Source: a virus
Lineage: Duplodnaviria > Heunggongvirae > Uroviricota > Caudoviricetes
Virus record (IMG/VR): IMGVR_UViG_2778261446_000001
DNA length: 21,150 nt
Reading direction: 5' to 3' (one strand)
Below the pieces are notes generated by a model. The model did not search any database. It was not told the DNA's origin and was given only the letters and a program-made list of their open reading frames with translations. The position numbers and the translations under genes were made by a program. Every line of letters starts with the position of its first letter. Position 1 is the first letter of the stretch. Of this stretch, positions 2,291 to 21,150 are shown in pieces.

Positions 2291-2643
2291 TACGCCTCCG
2301 ATGTAACAGTCGTTATTCCATAAAGAGTGTCGATTTCAGCGGAAAACATGACACGTCGGGTCGTGGTATCCACCGTCGTATTGAAAGAGAGGATTGATTT
2401 AACGCCCCGCGTTTCGAGGATGCGCTTACGGATCGCCAGGTTGTAGGTTTCCGGCTTCTGCTTACCGAGTACGGACTGGATCCACGGAGTCCCTTCGGTG
2501 GTATCGAGAAACCATTGCCCATACCACAATTCGAATCGCGTTTTTACCGCCTGCGCCACGGCCTCCGGTGAGTTAATCAGCCAGGTGTCATCACCGCTGC
2601 CAAAGGTATAATCGCCATCGGCGTCTTCACGTCTGTATCGCAT
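2290..2643 (-). CDS. Putative small baseplate wedge protein (gpW / gp25-like)
   Basis: 117-aa ORF with ATG at 2643 overlapping the spike gene stop (ATGA). Its size and its place between the spike and gpJ-like genes match gpW/gp25-like proteins. Assignment is by synteny. Confidence 0.4.
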   Translation of the reverse strand: MRYRREDADGDYTFGSGDDTWLINSPEAVAQAVKTRFELWYGQWFLDTTEGTPWIQSVLGKQKPETYNLAIRKRILETRGVKSILSFNTTVDTTTRRVMFSAEIDTLYGITTVTSEA

Positions 2644-3398
2644 CAGTTAGGCGCTCCTGTGTTACCGCCGCCGGTCTGTACTCCGCCGTGCGTGTGCGTC
2701 ATCAGGCTCTTACCACCAGCTTTTACATCGTTAGTCACCGTGACAGGGCCAAGCATCGTCGCGGTGCCGCCGCTTTCGCCCATCCCCTGAGAGAGATTCC
2801 CGTTTATTGTCACGTTGCCGTTTAGCGTGATGGTGGGTGATGTGATCGTGGTTCCTCCTTCTGCTGTCGCCGTCAACGCGCCGGGAGTTTTAACCGTGAT
2901 ATTATGGCCTGCGGCCACTTCCACAAACGCAGCGCCATCATCAGTACGCAGCTGCGCGCCACTGGTGCTTATTCCGCTTATTTTCTGCGCCTGAGACTGC
3001 GGCCCGACGATACAGAAAGCATCCGATAAATCATGCACCCGGTCGTCGACAGGCTCCTGCACCCCGCCGTTCTGCCACCAGAAATCGATGCAGCGGTCGG
3101 CGAAAATCACCAGGCATTCATCCCCGGCTTTAACCGGAAAAGTCAACGTACAGCCTCCACCGCGCGGAAATACCACTGGCACATCCACCAGCAACGGGTA
3201 ATTTTTGGTAATGCGGTTACCGTCGTTATCCTTTTCAACCGAACGGATAGCTGGCTGCACAACCGCCGTCACCGCGTCGGGATCGAATGACTGAACAATG
3301 CCAGGCAAGGCGACACGGATCTGGTTCTTTGTTGTTTCCCGTTCAGATTTGAATGTTTCGGCAAGGTCGCCGCTGCGGGTCTGGTCAGATACTGCCAT
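2643..3398 (-). CDS. Baseplate central spike protein (gpV / gp138-like)
   Basis: 251-aa ORF with ATG at 3398 and a GGAG about 10 nt upstream. The C-terminal half is Gly/Thr-rich and repetitive (NITVKTPGALTATAEGGTTITSPTITLNGNVTINGN), consistent with a beta-helix, and ends in THTHGG, an HxH motif like the metal-binding apex of phage spikes. Precedes the gpW-like gene as in P2 (V-W-J-I). Confidence 0.55.
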   Translation of the reverse strand: MAVSDQTRSGDLAETFKSERETTKNQIRVALPGIVQSFDPDAVTAVVQPAIRSVEKDNDGNRITKNYPLLVDVPVVFPRGGGCTLTFPVKAGDECLVIFADRCIDFWWQNGGVQEPVDDRVHDLSDAFCIVGPQSQAQKISGISTSGAQLRTDDGAAFVEVAAGHNITVKTPGALTATAEGGTTITSPTITLNGNVTINGNLSQGMGESGGTATMLGPVTVTNDVKAGGKSLMTHTHGGVQTGGGNTGAPN

Positions 3399-3413
3399 TT
3401 AGTAGGCTCCAGA

Positions 3414-3441
3414 AAGCAAAAAACCCGCCGGGTGGCGGGTT
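3414..3441 (-). terminator. Rho-independent terminator closing the AT-rich moron
   Basis: An 8-bp stem (3422-3429 pairing with 3434-3441, mostly G/C) with a 4-nt loop is followed on the minus strand by UUUUUUGCUUU. It sits 17 nt downstream of the membrane-protein stop codon and just upstream of the spike gene ribosome-binding site. Confidence 0.6.
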
Positions 3442-3457
3442 CATTATTGAAGTTTCA

Positions 3458-3697
3458 TTACTGCTTGTTTGCTTCTAACGCTTCAGCTATTCGGCGAAGA
3501 TACTCATTGTTTTTAAATGAAACCATGATGCACTCAAAAAATATTCGGCAAAATACAGCACATAACAAAAGCACTAAAGCGCCAGCAGCCTTCCCATTAA
3601 CAAACGTTATAATGGCGGCAACAACCAGAAGTAACATTGTGATGCCATACAGAACGTTGATGATTTTTGGAGTTATTAATTTATCAAATCCGAACAT
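3458..3697 (-). CDS. Small two-helix inner-membrane protein (moron gene, function unknown; DUF4282-like from memory)
   Basis: 79-aa ORF with ATG at 3697 and AAGGA about 9 nt upstream. It has two hydrophobic helices (IINVLYGITMLLLVVAAIITFV and AAGALVLLLCAVFCRIFFECIMVSF) and a charged C-terminal tail. Local GC is about 38% against about 55% in the flanking tail genes. It has its own promoter-like element upstream and a terminator downstream. Confidence 0.6.
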   Translation of the reverse strand: MFGFDKLITPKIINVLYGITMLLLVVAAIITFVNGKAAGALVLLLCAVFCRIFFECIMVSFKNNEYLRRIAEALEANKQ

Positions 3698-3733
3698 GCG
3701 ACAAATTCCTTATCGTGAAAGTAGAAGTATCAC

Positions 3734-3761
3734 ATTATAATTACGAGTGATTAATCAACAA
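3734..3761 (-). promoter_or_regulatory. Candidate sigma70 promoter for the membrane-protein gene
   Basis: On the minus strand there is a perfect -10 TATAAT (plus coordinates 3739..3734) with TTGTTG 16 nt upstream (3761..3756), about 35 nt upstream of the ATG at 3697. Called by consensus matching only. Confidence 0.4.
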
Positions 3762-4083
3762 TCTTTTTGCATGGAAAGGAACCGATGATTTTCGGCGCAT
3801 CCATGCTGTTCTGCAGCAGTTGGACATTCAGGAAAGCTTTTCCGTTACGTTTCACAAACTCAAAGCCGTAATTGTTACCATCACGGGAAGGCATCAGGCC
3901 CATGTCCATTTTTATGTTTGAATAGTCACCATCTTTTCCCAGAAATTTTATCTTCTGTGATGTGACAGTTTCACCGTTAATAACAGTCATTCCGTCACCG
4001 GTCATCGTGTAGTTGCCGCACTGAATTGCAGCCATCGCCGGAGCAGTAACCATCATAACTAACGCCAAACATAACCGTTTCAT
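3751..4083 (-). CDS. Small secreted/periplasmic protein with signal peptide (moron gene, function unknown)
   Basis: The ORF track gives 3751..4161, but that start overlaps the upstream gene. The likely start is ATG at 4083, overlapping the hub-gene stop (TAATG), giving 110 aa: MKRLCLALVMMVTAPAMA|AIQCGNY... with a typical Sec signal peptide and AxA cleavage site. The mature protein of about 92 aa has two Cys residues (one near each end), suggesting a disulfide. GC is about 43%. The layout is reminiscent of MliC/PliC-type lysozyme inhibitors, from memory only. Confidence 0.55.
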   Translation of the reverse strand: MKRLCLALVMMVTAPAMAAIQCGNYTMTGDGMTVINGETVTSQKIKFLGKDGDYSNIKMDMGLMPSRDGNNYGFEFVKRNGKAFLNVQLLQNSMDAPKIIGSFPCKKIVD

Positions 4084-5147
4084 TAAAGCCCTCTTTCCCT
4101 CGCTGATGAGGAAACAAGATCCGCCGCGCCACGCGCTTCGCACATCATATCCATGTACCACGCCTGGCCCCTTGTATCGCCAGTGTACATAATCCCGCGC
4201 ACAATATAAACGCCATCCGTTGCGATGCTGGCAGGTTGTGCTGTGGTGCCGCTTAGCGTGATATTTCCGTCCGTGTTCTGGTCGGTGATCTGCCCACCAG
4301 CCATCGCAATATCGTTGTTCGACAACGCGGTGCGATATACGGAAGCCTGATCCAGTTGAATGAGCCCATTAACCCGGATGTTCGGATTAATAAGCGCGCG
4401 GACGTTTACGCCGTTGCCGATAGTCTGCTGCGGCATGCCGATAAGCCCGGTGGCGCTGTTGAGCACAATCGCTTCATGAACATATTCGTTATTCGCCACC
4501 ATCTGGCGTTGACCGTCCACGAATTGCCATGTTGCGCCACATTGCCCGGCTACGTTATCCATAAGATGCCGCGTCATGCCAAAGAGCACCCGCCCCCGGG
4601 GGAATACAGTAGCAGGCATTTCAGGCGTCAGGCCTTCGGTCGCGCCTTTGGCTTCGAAGTCTTTCATCAGCGCACGGTTCACATCAGCGACCGTGTAACC
4701 GGCAGCCAGCGTCTGTGAGGTTATACTGGTGGCAAATGCCAGATCCGTATCTGCTGCCTGAATCAGGACATAGGAATCAATAGGGCTGTCTTTTCCTGTG
4801 ACCGAGTAGCGAATTTCTCCGCTGAAAATCAGCCCGTAGTTGCGGCCATCACTCTGGCCCACATCTGCCGCGTCGACTTCGCGCACGGTCCCGACGTCGC
4901 TTGCCGCCACCTCCGGCGCGATACCGTCGTAACCGGCAATCAGCCGCACTTTCGAAAATTCCTTCCCGGTGATTCGGTTCACAGTATCTGCCAAGAGGTT
5001 ATAAATTTTGATAGTCCCTACCCGGGACGCGCTGCTGATGTTGAACCAGTCGATCGTAAAGGTGACTTTGAAATCACTTAGCTCAATTCCCTGACCGTTC
5101 CCGTCCACAAGCTGCAGCTCGAAATGTCTCATCCAGTTCTGTGACAT
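4083..5147 (-). CDS. Putative baseplate hub protein (gpD / gp27-like)
   Basis: 354-aa ORF with ATG at 5147 and GGAG 7 nt upstream. Located downstream of the tape measure and upstream of the central spike, as hub proteins are in Mu/P2/PBSX-like tail modules. Assignment is by synteny and size. Confidence 0.45.
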   Translation of the reverse strand: MSQNWMRHFELQLVDGNGQGIELSDFKVTFTIDWFNISSASRVGTIKIYNLLADTVNRITGKEFSKVRLIAGYDGIAPEVAASDVGTVREVDAADVGQSDGRNYGLIFSGEIRYSVTGKDSPIDSYVLIQAADTDLAFATSITSQTLAAGYTVADVNRALMKDFEAKGATEGLTPEMPATVFPRGRVLFGMTRHLMDNVAGQCGATWQFVDGQRQMVANNEYVHEAIVLNSATGLIGMPQQTIGNGVNVRALINPNIRVNGLIQLDQASVYRTALSNNDIAMAGGQITDQNTDGNITLSGTTAQPASIATDGVYIVRGIMYTGDTRGQAWYMDMMCEARGAADLVSSSARERGL

Positions 5148-5452: not shown

Positions 5453-6039
5453 TAGCCGCCTCCCAGTAATGACGCCACGTTACCAGTGATGCTTTTCAGC
5501 AGTGAAGTATCTGGAGGCTTTGTGGTTTTGTTGCCGCTGTTCTGTAGCGCCGACGTGCTGGCCCCTTCCTTCATGTTGGTTTTATCCGCGACGGTGATCT
5601 GCTGTGTCCGGGAGATAAGGACCTCCCTCAGGGTGAGGACGGCGGACAGGACGTTTTCGGTTGTCTTGTCCGTCGTCACTTCCAGCGCCCGGATCAACAT
5701 GTTGCTGTACAGTCGTTTACCGGTTACCACATCGAAGGGGATACGGCTTTCCTGCAGATCCAGTAGCTCCTGATACGTCTGCTGAGGACTCAGGCCGAGC
5801 AGGCTGGTAGCCGTCAGATTACTGGCAAAATCCAGCAATGCGCCGCCACCGGCGAAACCAACCTCCATCACCACTTCTGACGGTTTTTTATAGGCATGAT
5901 CAGCGACAGCGGCCCCGACCTCTACCGGATGCTCTGTTATTTCAAGCATATCTGTATGCTTCTCTGAAATAACAACACTGGGAACAATCATTCCTATTTT
6001 TCTGCTCTGCTGATGAAAAAGTGTAGAGAGAATATCCAC
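5452..6039 (-). CDS. Tail/baseplate protein downstream of tape measure, uncharacterised
   Basis: 195-aa ORF starting at GTG 6039, which overlaps the tape measure TAG stop (TAGTG), with a GAGGG-rich Shine-Dalgarno upstream. An alternative internal ATG at 5991 has poor Shine-Dalgarno spacing. Confidence 0.4.
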   Translation of the reverse strand: MDILSTLFHQQSRKIGMIVPSVVISEKHTDMLEITEHPVEVGAAVADHAYKKPSEVVMEVGFAGGGALLDFASNLTATSLLGLSPQQTYQELLDLQESRIPFDVVTGKRLYSNMLIRALEVTTDKTTENVLSAVLTLREVLISRTQQITVADKTNMKEGASTSALQNSGNKTTKPPDTSLLKSITGNVASLLGGG

Positions 6040-8027
6040 TAACTCACCCTCACCTGATTACTTCGCATGACCTGAGCATTTGCAGACTGTTGCCGACGTG
6101 CAACCTCATTACCGACAGCGTGCGGATCTCCGCCACCGTAAATGTGGTAAGTATTTTGCTGGTTAACCTCTGTCATTTTGCCACTAATTCCCGCCACGGC
6201 AGCCTTATTAATCAGCTCTCGAGAATAGATATTTCTTCCATTTTCATGCTGGATAATGCTGCTCATCAATGCTGACATGGTTTGCGGATCGCTCATATTC
6301 AGGGCAGCCCGGGGATCCACTCCCAGTCGTTGCGATACAGCCCTGATATACGCAGTTGTGTTGTTATTATCAGACGCAGGTGCCCAGGTAGAGATAATTT
6401 TCTCCACACTGTTTATTCCCCGTCCGGCGTACAGCATTAACTGACGAGCAAGAGCCCGTAATCCATCAAAAGCAGTTTCAAATCTGGCAAATCGCCCGCC
6501 CGGGCGTTCAAGAGAAGCCCCTGCCTGACCAGCAAAATTAAGGTTTCCCGGATTGTTATTCCGTTCTCCTCGTTTCGTAGCCTGTGCATATTGTTCCGGC
6601 TCATCATCACTAAACCAGCCGCGTACCGTCCGGCCCACACTGCGGGGATCGAATCCCCAGTGCTCTTTAATCCAGTCGGCAGTACTGTTAGCGCTGTCTG
6701 TAACCATCGGCATCGCTGACGGATTTTCGCTGCCCTGATTAAGTATCTGTTTGCCGATGCTGACGGCATCAGCCCAGCGGCCATCTTTGATAGCGTTGAG
6801 CAGGTCGGCGATCATGTTCAGCATTTTGCTGAATTCGCCCATCTGGTCGATGAAGTTGCTGAAATCCCACTTCAGGGACCATGATTTGGGGTCAATATTG
6901 AGCAGTTTCGCCAGCGCTTTCGCCAGTTCATTAACAGACCCTTTCAGGTCACGAACCATCTTCAGCGCGGCATCGACCTCCGGCTTCCACTTGCCCCAGT
7001 CAATCAGGCTGTCGCCGCCTTCCTTCCAGGTCTGATAGTCCTCCCACAGAAGGGCAATCCCCGCCGCCAGCGCGGTAATGAGGCCAATCGGCGACATCCA
7101 GAACGTACTGTTCAGAATGCGCAGCGCAATCGTCAGCGCGCCAAACAGCGAGATGAGCTCCCGCGTTTGCTTATCCAGCGATTGCCACCAGGTGATGAGG
7201 CCTGATGTTCCTTCAATCAGTCTGAAGAACAGCCGCCCGATAATATCCCCGAGCGCCAGAATGCCTTTTATGGCTTTCGTCAGGGTCTGCTCGATACGCG
7301 GGAAGTTGTCCAGGATATGGCGGCGCAGAGTGTCCAGCGAACCCGCAAGCCCACCCGCAAGATTAGAGCCGATTTTGTCACGGGCCATGCCTGCCATCGC
7401 GCCAAACTCACGCAGGGAGGTCATAAATTTGTTGGAGCTTCTGGCCGCCTCGTCAGCATTGAAGCCGATAGCTTTCGCCATTGCGCTGTACTGCCCGGAG
7501 AAACCACCCACACCCCGGCGCATAGCCATCAGGGTATTTTCGTCAATGCCCAGCATCTGCGCATACTGGTTAGCCCGGTAATACGGCATGCTGCTGAGTT
7601 TCTGTCCAACGCCCGTAAAGATAGCAGCCATGTCACGCATGTTACCGCTGGCATCACGGGTCTGTACGCCCAGGCGATTCAGAAAGCCTTCTGCTCCGGG
7701 ATTGTTACGAATAAACCGGGAGAGGCTTTCCAGAGAAGATCGCACAGCGTCCACACTGCCGCCAACCTGCGAAACCGCATAGCCAATAGACTGAATTCCC
7801 TGGACCGTCGCGCCGGTGCGCTGTGACGCCCAGTAAAGATTATCCAGGCCGGAGGCGATCTTAGCCGTGAAGGCCACCACGGACAGCGCAGCTCCTTCAA
7901 CAGCCAGCCCCATTTTGATGACATTTGCAGTTGTACCGGCGAGGACAGAACCGAACTTTTTCGCTCCTGCATCATCCACACTGAAGCCAAGCGAGACGAG
8001 GAAATCTTTAATAGTTTCAGCGTTCAT
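6039..8027 (-). CDS. Tail tape measure protein
   Basis: Long ORF (track 6039..8048 starts at a TTG). The preferred start is ATG at 8027, preceded by GGAGAGAGG. The protein is Ala/Gly/Leu-rich and helical, with a central hydrophobic segment (LITALAAGIALLW). It follows the chaperone and its frameshift extension, the canonical arrangement. Confidence 0.8.
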   Translation of the reverse strand: MNAETIKDFLVSLGFSVDDAGAKKFGSVLAGTTANVIKMGLAVEGAALSVVAFTAKIASGLDNLYWASQRTGATVQGIQSIGYAVSQVGGSVDAVRSSLESLSRFIRNNPGAEGFLNRLGVQTRDASGNMRDMAAIFTGVGQKLSSMPYYRANQYAQMLGIDENTLMAMRRGVGGFSGQYSAMAKAIGFNADEAARSSNKFMTSLREFGAMAGMARDKIGSNLAGGLAGSLDTLRRHILDNFPRIEQTLTKAIKGILALGDIIGRLFFRLIEGTSGLITWWQSLDKQTRELISLFGALTIALRILNSTFWMSPIGLITALAAGIALLWEDYQTWKEGGDSLIDWGKWKPEVDAALKMVRDLKGSVNELAKALAKLLNIDPKSWSLKWDFSNFIDQMGEFSKMLNMIADLLNAIKDGRWADAVSIGKQILNQGSENPSAMPMVTDSANSTADWIKEHWGFDPRSVGRTVRGWFSDDEPEQYAQATKRGERNNNPGNLNFAGQAGASLERPGGRFARFETAFDGLRALARQLMLYAGRGINSVEKIISTWAPASDNNNTTAYIRAVSQRLGVDPRAALNMSDPQTMSALMSSIIQHENGRNIYSRELINKAAVAGISGKMTEVNQQNTYHIYGGGDPHAVGNEVARRQQSANAQVMRSNQVRVS

Positions 8028-8657
8028 TATCCTCTCTCCATTTCTCAATGCGCCGCTGGTTATCCGCTTTTACCGCCAGGTGGTCATTCAAGAGAGCAAT
8101 GTCGTACAAATCGACAGAGCCATCTTTAAGTGCTGTATAAGGAATTAACCCGGCGTCAACCGGATTGAGAAGGTAGGACAGCCCGTCCGGCAGGCTGTTA
8201 AACGTCAGCCCTGTTGCAGGCTCTGCGTCGTGCTGGTAAGGGGTGTAGGCAAAAAATTTCCCAGCGAATCGGCGACCACCCGCGCCACCAGATGCAGCAT
8301 GACCAGCAAGTCAATATCATCAAACATCAGTTCGCCCTGGGTAAATACCGGAACCCATCCGTCCATATGACGCCGCGATACCACCGCAAGACAGGGATGA
8401 ATAATCGCACTGGTGTCATCTTCGGTCAGGGAAGACAGTTCCTCAGCGATACGCGGGAGCATGGTTTCAAACACCGGTTTTAACTGCTCGAATTTCACGG
8501 TGTCGATTTTGCCATCAGCAGGCAAACGGGAGCGAATGCTCCCGAAATCTGACATCATTCCTGCCAGCACCGGCAGAAGTTTGCGGGTCACTTTCAGCTG
8601 ATCAAAAACGCTGAGTTTTGCCGCGCGATATTTCACGCCTTTGATTTCGAATTCCAT
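8017..8657 (-). CDS. Tail assembly chaperone, -1 frameshifted long form (gpGT-like fusion)
   Basis: The zero frame ends at 8205. The -1 frame is open from the slippery tract (minus-strand A-AAT-TTT-TTG, plus coordinates 8250-8259) for 86 codons to a TGA at 8019..8017, just inside the tape measure start. Translated by hand (...FFAYTPYQHDAEPATGLTFNSLPDGLSY...IEKWREDNER*). There is no start codon in this frame, which is why it is missing from the ORF track. Confidence 0.5.
8205..8657 (-). CDS. Tail assembly chaperone (short form)
   Basis: 150-aa ORF with ATG at 8657 and GGGGAG about 10 nt upstream. Sits between the tube and tape measure genes, and is acidic, as tail chaperones typically are. 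Confidence 0.6.
   Translation of the reverse strand: MEFEIKGVKYRAAKLSVFDQLKVTRKLLPVLAGMMSDFGSIRSRLPADGKIDTVKFEQLKPVFETMLPRIAEELSSLTEDDTSAIIHPCLAVVSRRHMDGWVPVFTQGELMFDDIDLLVMLHLVARVVADSLGNFLPTPLTSTTQSLQQG
8250..8259 (-). other. Candidate -1 ribosomal slippery site in the chaperone gene
   Basis: Minus-strand sequence gga-aat-ttt-ttg contains the overlapping heptamers A_AAT_TTT and T_TTT_TTG. The -1 frame downstream of it is open to the tape measure start. Confidence 0.45.
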
Positions 8658-19631: not shown

Positions 19632-20156
19632 TCAATTAATCAGCAGTTCAGGCTGTGTCACCTGCAAGATGTATTCATGCTCGACAGCCAGGACACGCTT
19701 CTCTTTCTTCCGTTCGTTCATTAACCGACTGCCGATCGTACCTTTCAGCTTTGAGCGTGTTTCTTTGATGGCGTAGCGGTGCTGCATTTCTTCGCCAATT
19801 GCCATGCGGCGGCTCAGTTGCTCTGCCATCCAGTTGAATGCCGCGATATAGCTCTCCTTGATTGCCGCAGCAGCTTTCCCGGTGAACCCCATCACAACCA
19901 TGATCCAGCCATCTTTCGTCAGGCTGTACATCGGGCGAACCTTGCCCTGCTCATCGATATAATCAGCCGACGCAAAATTGCGTTGGCTAAACTCACGCGA
20001 GCAATCAGCCTTAACCTGCTCGATTTTCCTGAGAACATCACCGTGTCGCTTGCCGAAGTACTTGGCAATTTTTCTGGATGTGGTAACGACCTCTCCGTTT
20101 TTGGCTTGCACCATTTCTCGGAAGTCGAAGGCTGGAATAACTGAATGATTATTCAT
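19632..20156 (-). CDS. rha: Rha-family phage regulatory protein
   Basis: The track ORF begins at GTG 20192; the preferred start is ATG 20156 (MNNHSVIP...) with AAGG upstream. Contains the motifs TTSRKIAKYFGKRHGDVLRKIE and YSLTKDGWIMVVMGFTGKAAAAIKESYIAAFNWM, characteristic of the Phage_pRha family. Confidence 0.75.
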   Translation of the reverse strand: MNNHSVIPAFDFREMVQAKNGEVVTTSRKIAKYFGKRHGDVLRKIEQVKADCSREFSQRNFASADYIDEQGKVRPMYSLTKDGWIMVVMGFTGKAAAAIKESYIAAFNWMAEQLSRRMAIGEEMQHRYAIKETRSKLKGTIGSRLMNERKKEKRVLAVEHEYILQVTQPELLIN

Positions 20157-20298
20157 AGCGTCTTTACCTTTTAGAAAGTGAGCCTGTCTCACAGAAAAGC
20201 CGCCCGAGAGAGGTCGCCACCTATAACGGCATTTCTCAGGCTCGCTTACTGAAAGGCTCTCGTTAATATGCGCGTGAGATGCGCGTTTACTGCGGACA

Positions 20299-20325
20299 TA
20301 AAAAAGCCCCGCTTTTCGCGAGGCT
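20299..20325 (-). terminator. Rho-independent terminator downstream of the Rz/Rz1 lysis genes
   Basis: Minus-strand stem AGCCTCGC / GCGGGGCT (8 bp with one mismatch, 5-nt loop) followed by UUUUUU. It lies about 30 nt after the Rz stop codon. Confidence 0.55.
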
Positions 20326-20356
20326 CATTAAATGGACTTTGTGGTTTGCAAAAAAA

Positions 20357-20794
20357 TTATTTCAGGCACTGAGTCCTGATGTACTCCTGCAGGTAGTTAA
20401 CCTGCGCGGTTATCCTGTCGATTCCACTTCGGAGACGGTAATAATTGAGTTCAGCATCTGCTGTAAGTCTTGGGCTTTCTCCATCGCCCATGCTGCTGGC
20501 TCCGGTCGTTGACTTTGCACAGGTGGCGGCGACTTGCAGGCGCTTACGACCAGCAGAAACATCAGCACGGAGACTTTCGATAGTCGCGTTAGCATCAGCA
20601 AGCTCCTTTGTGTATCTGGCGTCGAGTTCTGCTACATCACGTTGACGCTTCTGCATGTCAGCGATGATGGATGTGGCTTTATCACGCTGATCTTTGTAGG
20701 CGATGGCGTTATCACGGTAATGATTAACAGCCCATGACAGACAGACGATGATGCAGATAACCAGAGCGGAGATAATCGCGGTGACTCTGCTCAT
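20357..20794 (-). CDS. Rz: Spanin, inner-membrane subunit (i-spanin Rz)
   Basis: 145-aa ORF. The N-terminus [31 protein letters not shown] is essentially identical to lambda Rz. Its ATG overlaps the R stop (ATGA), and it has an N-terminal transmembrane helix followed by a coiled-coil-like periplasmic domain. Confidence 0.9.
20410..20595 (-). CDS. Rz1: Spanin, outer-membrane lipoprotein subunit (o-spanin Rz1), embedded in Rz in the +1 frame
   Basis: The track ORF starts at TTG 20601; the ATG is at 20595. It has a signal peptide with lipobox (LLVVSAC) and a Pro-rich mature region ([16 protein letters not shown]), and lies entirely inside Rz, as in lambda. Confidence 0.75.
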
Positions 20795-21150
20795 ACCTCA
20801 ATCTCTCTGACCGTTCCGCCAGCCTCTTTGAATTTTGCAATCAGGCTGTCAGCCTTATGCTCGAACTGACCATAACCAGCGCCCGGCAGTGAAGCCCAGA
20901 TATTGCTGCAACGGTCAATTGCCTGACGAATATCACCACGATCAATCATCGGCAAAGCGCCACGCTCCTTAATCTGCTGCAATGCCACAGCGTCCTGGCT
21001 TTTCGGAGAGAAGTCTTTCAGGCCAAGCTGCTTACGGTAGGCATCCCACCAACGGGAAAGAAGCTGGTAGCGTCCGGCGGCTGTTGATTTGAGTTTGGGG
21101 TTTAGCGTGACAAGTTTGCGAGGGTGATCGGAGTAATCAGTGAATAGCTC
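20791..21150 (-). CDS. R: Endolysin R, lambda-type lytic transglycosylase (5' end outside window)
   Basis: The frame is open from the window edge: [119 protein letters not shown]. This is near-identical to the C-terminal ~119 residues of lambda R as I recall it. The track shows only the portion from an internal GTG at 20988. Confidence 0.9.

Follow-up and report, generated by a model that had tools for sequence, protein, structure and literature searches.

What does a small exported protein do when its gene lies between the hub and spike genes of a phage tail? The question is posed by the window analysed here, a 21,150-nucleotide stretch of DNA from a caudoviricete virus record (IMGVR_UViG_2778261446_000001), in which 3751-4083 on the minus strand is an ORF for a 110-aa protein. 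A first-pass annotation, made from the letters of the window, had proposed a periplasmic lysozyme inhibitor resembling MliC and PliC that would act on host-derived lysozyme. We describe the gene, its bond to the hub gene, the exchange of its alleles and the modelled structure of its product, and weigh the functions that these suggest.

The translation reads MKRLCLALVMMVTAPAMA up to the predicted cleavage site and continues AIQCGNY...SRDGNNYGFEF..VKRNGKAF...SFPCKKIVD to the stop codon, the two ends of the whole protein being MKRLCLALVMMVTAPAMAAIQCGNY and SFPCKKIVD. The features of the gene are these:

3751..4083, minus strand: small-protein gene, stop codon included (PHROG match at E 4.5e-53, NCBI name, dN/dS of 0.03-0.07)
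4030..4083, minus strand: signal peptide, residues 1-18 (MKRLCLALVMMVTAPAMA), with predicted signal peptidase I cleavage after AMA (sequence and family-wide heuristic)
3754..4029, minus strand: mature 92-aa domain, modelled as an 8-stranded beta-barrel, with invariant Cys4 and Cys87 in mature numbering (structure model, alignments)
4081..4093, minus strand: translational coupling signal, composed of a GAGGG Shine-Dalgarno sequence at 4093-4089 and TAATG at 4085-4081 (read from the sequence)

A longer ORF with a GTG start, 3751-4161, was also listed by the ORF program. Three observations place the true start at the ATG at 4083: the GAGGG sequence lies five bases 5′ of it, it overlaps the hub stop codon (TAA and ATG have one base in common in TAATG), and homologues all begin there; on the same grounds the GTG-started ORF is ruled out as the gene. 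The public record of Salmonella phage SEN34 (L002 3582-3920) annotates the homologue from an internal Met as a 77-aa protein with no signal peptide, despite a tblastn alignment covering all 110 residues, and in phage GZ7 (H19) the gene is present and unannotated.

A basic start, a hydrophobic core and a predicted A-M-A cleavage site make up the N-terminus, the Sec-type layout that the first-pass annotation had described for this ORF. By a simple heuristic, a hydrophobic N-terminal core and a small -1/-3 site right before the first Cys recur in 229 of 238 full-length relatives. The predicted signal peptide thus marks the protein as exported to the periplasm by the Sec pathway. A lipobox at the conserved Cys is missing from all 238, which rules out lipoprotein status for the window protein. 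Exactly two Cys are present in the mature part of 226 of them, and the pair, correctly placed by the annotation near either end of the ~92-aa mature part, is invariant in alignments of close and distant relatives; a Cys4-Cys87 disulfide would close the barrel.

The window is a prophage. An E. coli genome is 99.9% identical to it over an 801-bp query (window 3400-4200), and the small protein there is 100% identical. On the matching chromosome, which is closely similar across the tail genes compared, the prophage is integrated beside a tRNA-Arg gene and intS, and combines lambdoid early genes with a contractile tail module. In the window the minus-strand order is tape-measure (6039-8048), Dit-like, plug (Pam3 gp18-like), hub (E217 gp41-like) and the small gene, followed by a 79-aa DUF4282 gene, a terminator-like hairpin, the spike (gpV-type), the sheath initiator and baseplate J. 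Immediately around the small gene these are:

4083..5147, minus strand: baseplate hub gene, 354 aa, E217 gp41-like (Pfam E217_GP41, NCBIfam, synteny)
3734..3761, minus strand: possible DUF4282 promoter, with a perfect -10 TATAAT at 3739-3734, a weak -35 TTGTTG at 3761-3756 and a 16-nt spacer (read directly)
3458..3697, minus strand: DUF4282 protein gene, 79 aa, two predicted transmembrane segments (Pfam E 1.2e-10, hydropathy)
3421..3442, minus strand: intrinsic terminator-like hairpin of 9 pairs, 6 of them G-C, then a T run, closing the slot before the spike (scan)
2643..3398, minus strand: baseplate spike gene, 251 aa, gpV-type with apex motif, the downstream boundary of the slot (Pfam, NCBIfam phage_P2_V)

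A crude consensus scan found no sigma-70-like promoter upstream of the small gene. The scan also missed the DUF4282 promoter, whose -35 has only three of six matches; this promoter, with most of the small gene upstream of it, does not serve that gene. With its own -10 box and terminator-like hairpin the DUF4282 gene is a classic moron inside the tail operon, and it is a rare partner of the small gene, found at 2 of 113 loci. At the right end of the window (~20300-21150, minus strand) lie the C-terminal part of an endolysin, cut by the window edge, and then Rz with an embedded Rz1 lipoprotein ORF. From the translation and the lambda sequences we take the partial endolysin to be lambda R-like, in agreement with the first reading, and the others to be Rz/Rz1. 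For two minus-strand ORFs listed in this region, 19632-20192 and 20357-20794 (the latter overlapping the Rz stretch), a PDB sequence search found no match.

The bond between the small gene and the hub gene was examined in 113 loci (33 species genomes and 80 viral contigs). At 107 of them less than 100 nt separates the hub stop codon from the start of the small gene; the remaining six were unscorable as hub-adjacent, three having degraded or missing hubs, two lying at contig ends and one (L042) having an intervening copy of the small gene. Where the junction was measured it is mostly tight (0-5 nt at 91 of 108 loci). Adjacency holds down to 35% small-protein identity, in Klebsiella prophages, and also for 289-aa versions with a lipobox. 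Nowhere in the loci and phage records examined was the small gene found away from a hub gene. The spike gene follows in 103 loci at more variable distance (2-4112 nt, median 1147 nt). Two loci, L016 (Elizabethkingia phage EKP1) and L021 (a Chryseobacterium sp. contig), have enterobacterial-type tail modules and attributed Flavobacteriia hosts, with hubs 47% and 94% identical to that of the window, respectively; their host assignment or assembly may be wrong.

The protein belongs to PHROG 3443 (phrog_3443; E 4.5e-53 over residues 3-109 of 110), whose function is given as unknown in PHROGs, and the identical protein in E. coli ECO3183 is named ‘STY1065/STY2022 family phage-derived protein’ at NCBI. 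No NCBIfam model in the release searched matched it, a literature search on STY1065/STY2022 found nothing relevant, and PADLOC gave no match, leaving membership of a known defence system unsupported. The family is thus already catalogued and uncharacterised. Relatives form 412 clusters, and 589 contigs encode the identical protein; when 1.84 billion representative proteins were searched exhaustively with a profile, only 63 clusters were found, with Enterobacterales as the named sources. Genera with family members include animal-, plant-, insect-, fish- and soil-associated ones. The prophage region was matched in 324 of 5426 complete E. coli genomes, most matches covering only part of the 801-bp query. 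The 16 matching plasmid records are non-mobilizable, 25-77 kb long and mostly of phage-genome size.

Against close alleles the small gene has a dN/dS of 0.03-0.07, as low as that of the hub gene; it is under strong purifying selection, far beyond what a chance ORF would show. Across the wider family only the two Cys and two Asn are invariant, a pattern that fits a fold scaffold with variable binding surfaces, and the lack of conserved catalytic-type residues argues for a binding protein rather than an enzyme.

Longer relatives occupy the same slot after the hub. The 289-aa versions consist of a lipobox, a ~190-aa N-terminal domain with no Pfam or PHROG match, and then the barrel domain; these lipoprotein fusions confirm an extracytoplasmic site of action. 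The same arrangement of lipobox, ~190-aa domain and C-terminal barrel is seen in Dickeya solani (L011 8001-8870) and in P0137, P0158 and P0231, at 265-292 aa. In Yersinia frederiksenii (L025 7333-7707) the small gene is directly followed by a gene for a second secreted protein, of 124 aa with a Cys near each end, which is probably a very divergent paralogue (hhalign 61%, 17% identity).

Is the protein part of the tail? In Providencia phage PSTCR3 hub and spike are directly adjacent and the small gene is absent. Hafnia phage yong1, whose hub is 77% identical, has only a 21-codon C-terminal remnant (L015 4023-4085, 76% identity), the gene being replaced by unrelated ORFs, and in phage EKP1 two other secreted proteins stand in its place. 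The published E217 virion structure builds the hub gp41 and the tip gp43 and never mentions gp42, encoded between them (PMC10329688). A structural tail component is ruled out by this structure together with the absence or replacement of the gene in close relatives, and the comparison of gene content shows the small gene to be accessory and probably dispensable for virion assembly.

It is instead the first and most constant occupant of a hub-spike slot in SEN34/E217-type temperate myophages of Enterobacterales. Elsewhere the cargo is varied, as seen in L018-L050: toxin-antitoxin pairs (YafO and Phd/Doc), a nuclease resembling Mrr that has transmembrane segments, membrane proteins with DUF2335 or DUF4282, and several secreted proteins, one of them with an OB-fold (tRNA_anti-like). 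The slot may be a hotspot for anti-phage cargo.

Alleles of the small gene have been exchanged at this position. At several loci the hub is 97% identical to that of the window and the small protein only 55-65% identical. For L027, L032 and L004 the hub dS is 0.36-0.47, whereas that of the small gene exceeds 1.8 or is saturated beyond computing; a difference of this size means that the gene was replaced by recombination. Where the small allele differs, the last 69 hub codons remain 88-96% identical, and the hub 3′ end looks like a homology arm for allele exchange. The same conservation rules out a hub C-terminal domain that co-varies with the small protein in the manner of toxin and immunity. 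Within an allele class selection is purifying, not diversifying.

Stacked arrays of four to seven alleles occur in two genomes. In Serratia aquatilis (L042 6458-11322) seven copies of the small gene, one of them split or truncated, lie with a transposase gene between hub and spike, several sharing a near-identical C-terminal part and having diverged N-terminal parts. In Pseudescherichia vulneris (L046 3-2849) four consecutive cassettes precede the spike. The hub gene itself, truncated by the start of the contig, is followed by the first of them; the other three each consist of a hub 3′ fragment (about aa 273/291-354) and a different allele, one of these alleles being truncated.

The AlphaFold model that included the signal peptide was mediocre, while that of the mature part, made with 63 sequences, is an all-beta barrel with pLDDT 90.5 and pTM 0.80, in which ~90 aa form eight antiparallel strands. 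Foldseek returned nothing at E<=0.001 for this model, and a PDB search with the family profile found no solved structure at E<=10. The structural matches are generic barrel similarities of 3-16% identity, among which avidin-like barrels are closer than MliC/PliC, and the top 60 held no other MliC/PliC chain. Avidin-type biotin binding is ruled out, since the mature protein has no Trp and the avidin Pfam HMM matched none of 63 family members.

The lysozyme-inhibitor proposal was based on layout, and as a layout it holds: export, the Cys pair, barrel class and size all resemble MliC/PliC. Membership of that family does not follow. PF09864 (MliC) at E<=10 matched neither the window protein, nor eight relatives, nor any of the 63 members of alignment A5, while all 120 listed MliC relatives, used as a positive control, carry it. 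With hhalign the family profile gave a probability of 3.1% against E. coli MliC and 2.1% against a 21-sequence MliC/PliC profile, over only 10-12 aligned columns (12 for the latter), and only the strand of the first Cys aligned; the same profile detects the 17%-identical Yersinia prophage paralogue at 61% (E 8e-5, 93 columns). The MliC invariants S69, S71, G72, Y75, Y80, W83, G86 and A89 have no counterpart in the small protein, and the lysozyme-binding loops S-x-S-G-A-x-Y and Y-x-x-W-x-K-G-x-x-A are absent from it. The segments SRDGNNYGFEF and VKRNGKAF, which had been likened to those loops, are conserved in the close subfamily but vary in alignments of the wider family.

The annotation had itself named profile searches and a comparison of models as checks, and a lack of profile or structural similarity as evidence against its proposal. 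The profile searches found no similarity to MliC/PliC; the AlphaFold comparison found a generic barrel resemblance and nothing beyond that. On these sequence and profile grounds the small protein is not a homologue of MliC/PliC. One relative, P0238 (62% identical), has the automatic UniRef name ‘C-type lysozyme inhibitor domain-containing protein’, which Pfam did not reproduce. The label, as used in that entry, is unsuited to this family.

A phage lysin is a conceivable partner. The tape-measure protein ends in an endolysin-like domain: its C-terminal ~200 residues match the solved endolysin 7q47 (E 8.7e-14) and also Gp29 of 9vvp. Tails of this type therefore bring a lysin to the periplasm. 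Phages that are otherwise alike differ in this domain, which has been swapped, and tblastn alignments break near residue 490. Co-variation was assessed by Spearman correlation of similarity to the window alleles across ~40 loci. The small-protein allele tracked neither the lysin domain (rho 0.22) nor the C-terminal half of the spike (rho -0.12), and a single small allele was seen with lysin domains whose scores were as far apart as 0.99 and 0.22. With several tail proteins the allele shows a moderate correlation, which is highest for the hub and the Dit-like protein (rho 0.55 each). Allele-specific pairing with the lysin domain or the spike tip is therefore unsupported, and a Spackle-like pairing with the phage's own lysin gains no support; the protein may still act on parts of other phages.

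We tentatively favour, at somewhat less than even odds, a role in superinfection exclusion for this protein: an exported barrel that is not a tail part, encoded by the hub-coupled first cassette of a cargo slot, with alleles that are swapped and stacked. The barrel would bind something on which an incoming contractile-tail phage depends after it punctures the outer membrane and before its DNA enters, either a part of the phage tail tip or a protein of the host envelope. A cell carrying or expressing the prophage would thereby be protected from superinfection, and different alleles would have different targets. What counted for this role is a slot with conflict-type cargo, the allele replacement and the stacked arrays. 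P1 Sim is a precedent for phage exclusion located in the envelope. Further ones are T4 Spackle (PMC7677548) and T5 Llp (PMC9586334). No homology to any characterised exclusion protein was found. The main weakness of the exclusion role is expression: the small gene seems to be transcribed as part of the late tail operon, being coupled to a late tail gene and having no promoter-like site upstream in the crude scan, and a protein made only late would be a poor match for classical protection of the lysogen. The lack of co-variation with the tape-measure lysin domain or the spike and the purifying selection within allele classes also speak against it.

Other functions would account for part of these findings. 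A protein of this size, location, barrel fold class and terminal Cys pair could be a non-homologous functional analogue of the periplasmic peptidoglycan-hydrolase inhibitors, directed at animal lysozyme or at an incoming tail-borne muralytic domain; the UniRef name of P0238, the endolysin-like domain that such tails deliver (7q47, E 8.7e-14) and the Spackle precedent (PMC7677548) point the same way. We consider this quite unlikely. Neither the sequence or profile similarity nor the inhibitory-loop motifs of MliC/PliC are there, avidin-like barrels are structurally closer, the label of P0238 was not reproduced by Pfam, and the allele is uncorrelated with the lysin type, the same allele occurring with scores of 0.99 and 0.22. 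For defence against animal lysozyme, confinement to one tail module and presence in plant-, insect- and soil-associated genera would be unexpected; a family tied to that module and present also in plant, insect, fish and soil Enterobacterales fits a phage-centred role better. A little less improbable, though still unlikely, is cargo that benefits the host apart from phage entry, as orphan immunity against type VI effectors or bacteriocins or as a small ligand-binding barrel. Stacked, diversified copies resemble orphan immunity arrays as generally known, and the slot carries varied cargo. Such a gene would be expected in many contexts, yet it was never found away from the hub in the loci and phage records examined; as to ligands, avidin-type biotin binding is excluded by the missing Trp and Pfam match, and the structural matches are only generic barrels of 3-16% identity.

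The same late coupling that troubles an exclusion role, and the lack of a detectable promoter of its own, would suit a periplasmic factor for the phage's own lytic cycle, which might set lysis timing or mask receptors against loss of progeny on debris. By the +2 rule the lipoprotein fusions among its relatives would be sorted to the outer membrane, as Llp is. T5 Llp offers a precedent (PMC9586334). Against such a factor stand the close relatives that lack the gene, the loss that a soluble protein of the periplasm would suffer when the cell lyses, the long distance to the lysis cassette (which lies at the right end of the window) and the stacking of alleles, for which a housekeeping lytic function hardly accounts. 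This is the least probable of the explanations, very unlikely in our judgement. Returning to superinfection exclusion, a bolder form of it is doubtful, and we offer it as such: the hub-linked barrel would be the specificity element of a new polymorphic periplasmic exclusion system, with cassettes exchanged through the hub 3′ end and displaced alleles stacked. Each lysogen would then be equipped with an exchangeable set of periplasmic proteins that block rival phages, or other tail-like weapons, as these puncture the envelope.

The hub-locked behaviour of the cassette is the interesting part of the story of this gene. If the exclusion role is true, the family adds a new fold and a new genetic layout, a cassette locked to a baseplate-hub gene, to the short list of periplasmic phage exclusion proteins, and the hub-spike junction of common Enterobacterales prophages becomes a place to look for anti-phage cargo.

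Among known systems, MliC/PliC (PF09864; PDB 2f09, 3f6z, 4mir) share with the small protein a ~90-aa mature part, periplasmic location, an 8-stranded antiparallel barrel and a Cys near each end. Avidin and streptavidin barrels offer a fold analogy only, at 7-14% identity and a Foldseek E of 0.7 at best, and without Trp their biotin pocket is impossible here. T4 Spackle is helical. It is also an early gene product with no homology to the small protein, whose alleles do not track lysin type. Spackle (gp61.3), the inhibitor of the tail-spike lysozyme gp5, is nonetheless alike in being a small phage-encoded periplasmic protein that acts on the incoming tail (PMC7677548), and the phage studied here likewise delivers a tail lysin domain.

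Envelope-located exclusion proteins encoded next to tail genes of the very phage against which they protect include Cor of phi80 and N15, a receptor-blocking lipoprotein, and Sim of P1. These and T5 Llp, which like Cor is a receptor-blocking lipoprotein, differ from the small protein in lacking homology to it, and the window protein has no lipobox. Llp has the same placement beside tail genes and location in the envelope (PMC9586334), and some relatives of the small protein are lipoprotein fusions.

Orphan toxin-immunity cassette arrays are known from CDI and Rhs loci. No toxin is involved here, and what is retained of the hub gene is the conserved homology arm rather than a variable toxin domain. 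The likeness is one of architecture only: in the Pseudescherichia array (L046), as in those loci, displaced cassettes keep a fragment of the upstream gene and a variable small gene, head to tail.
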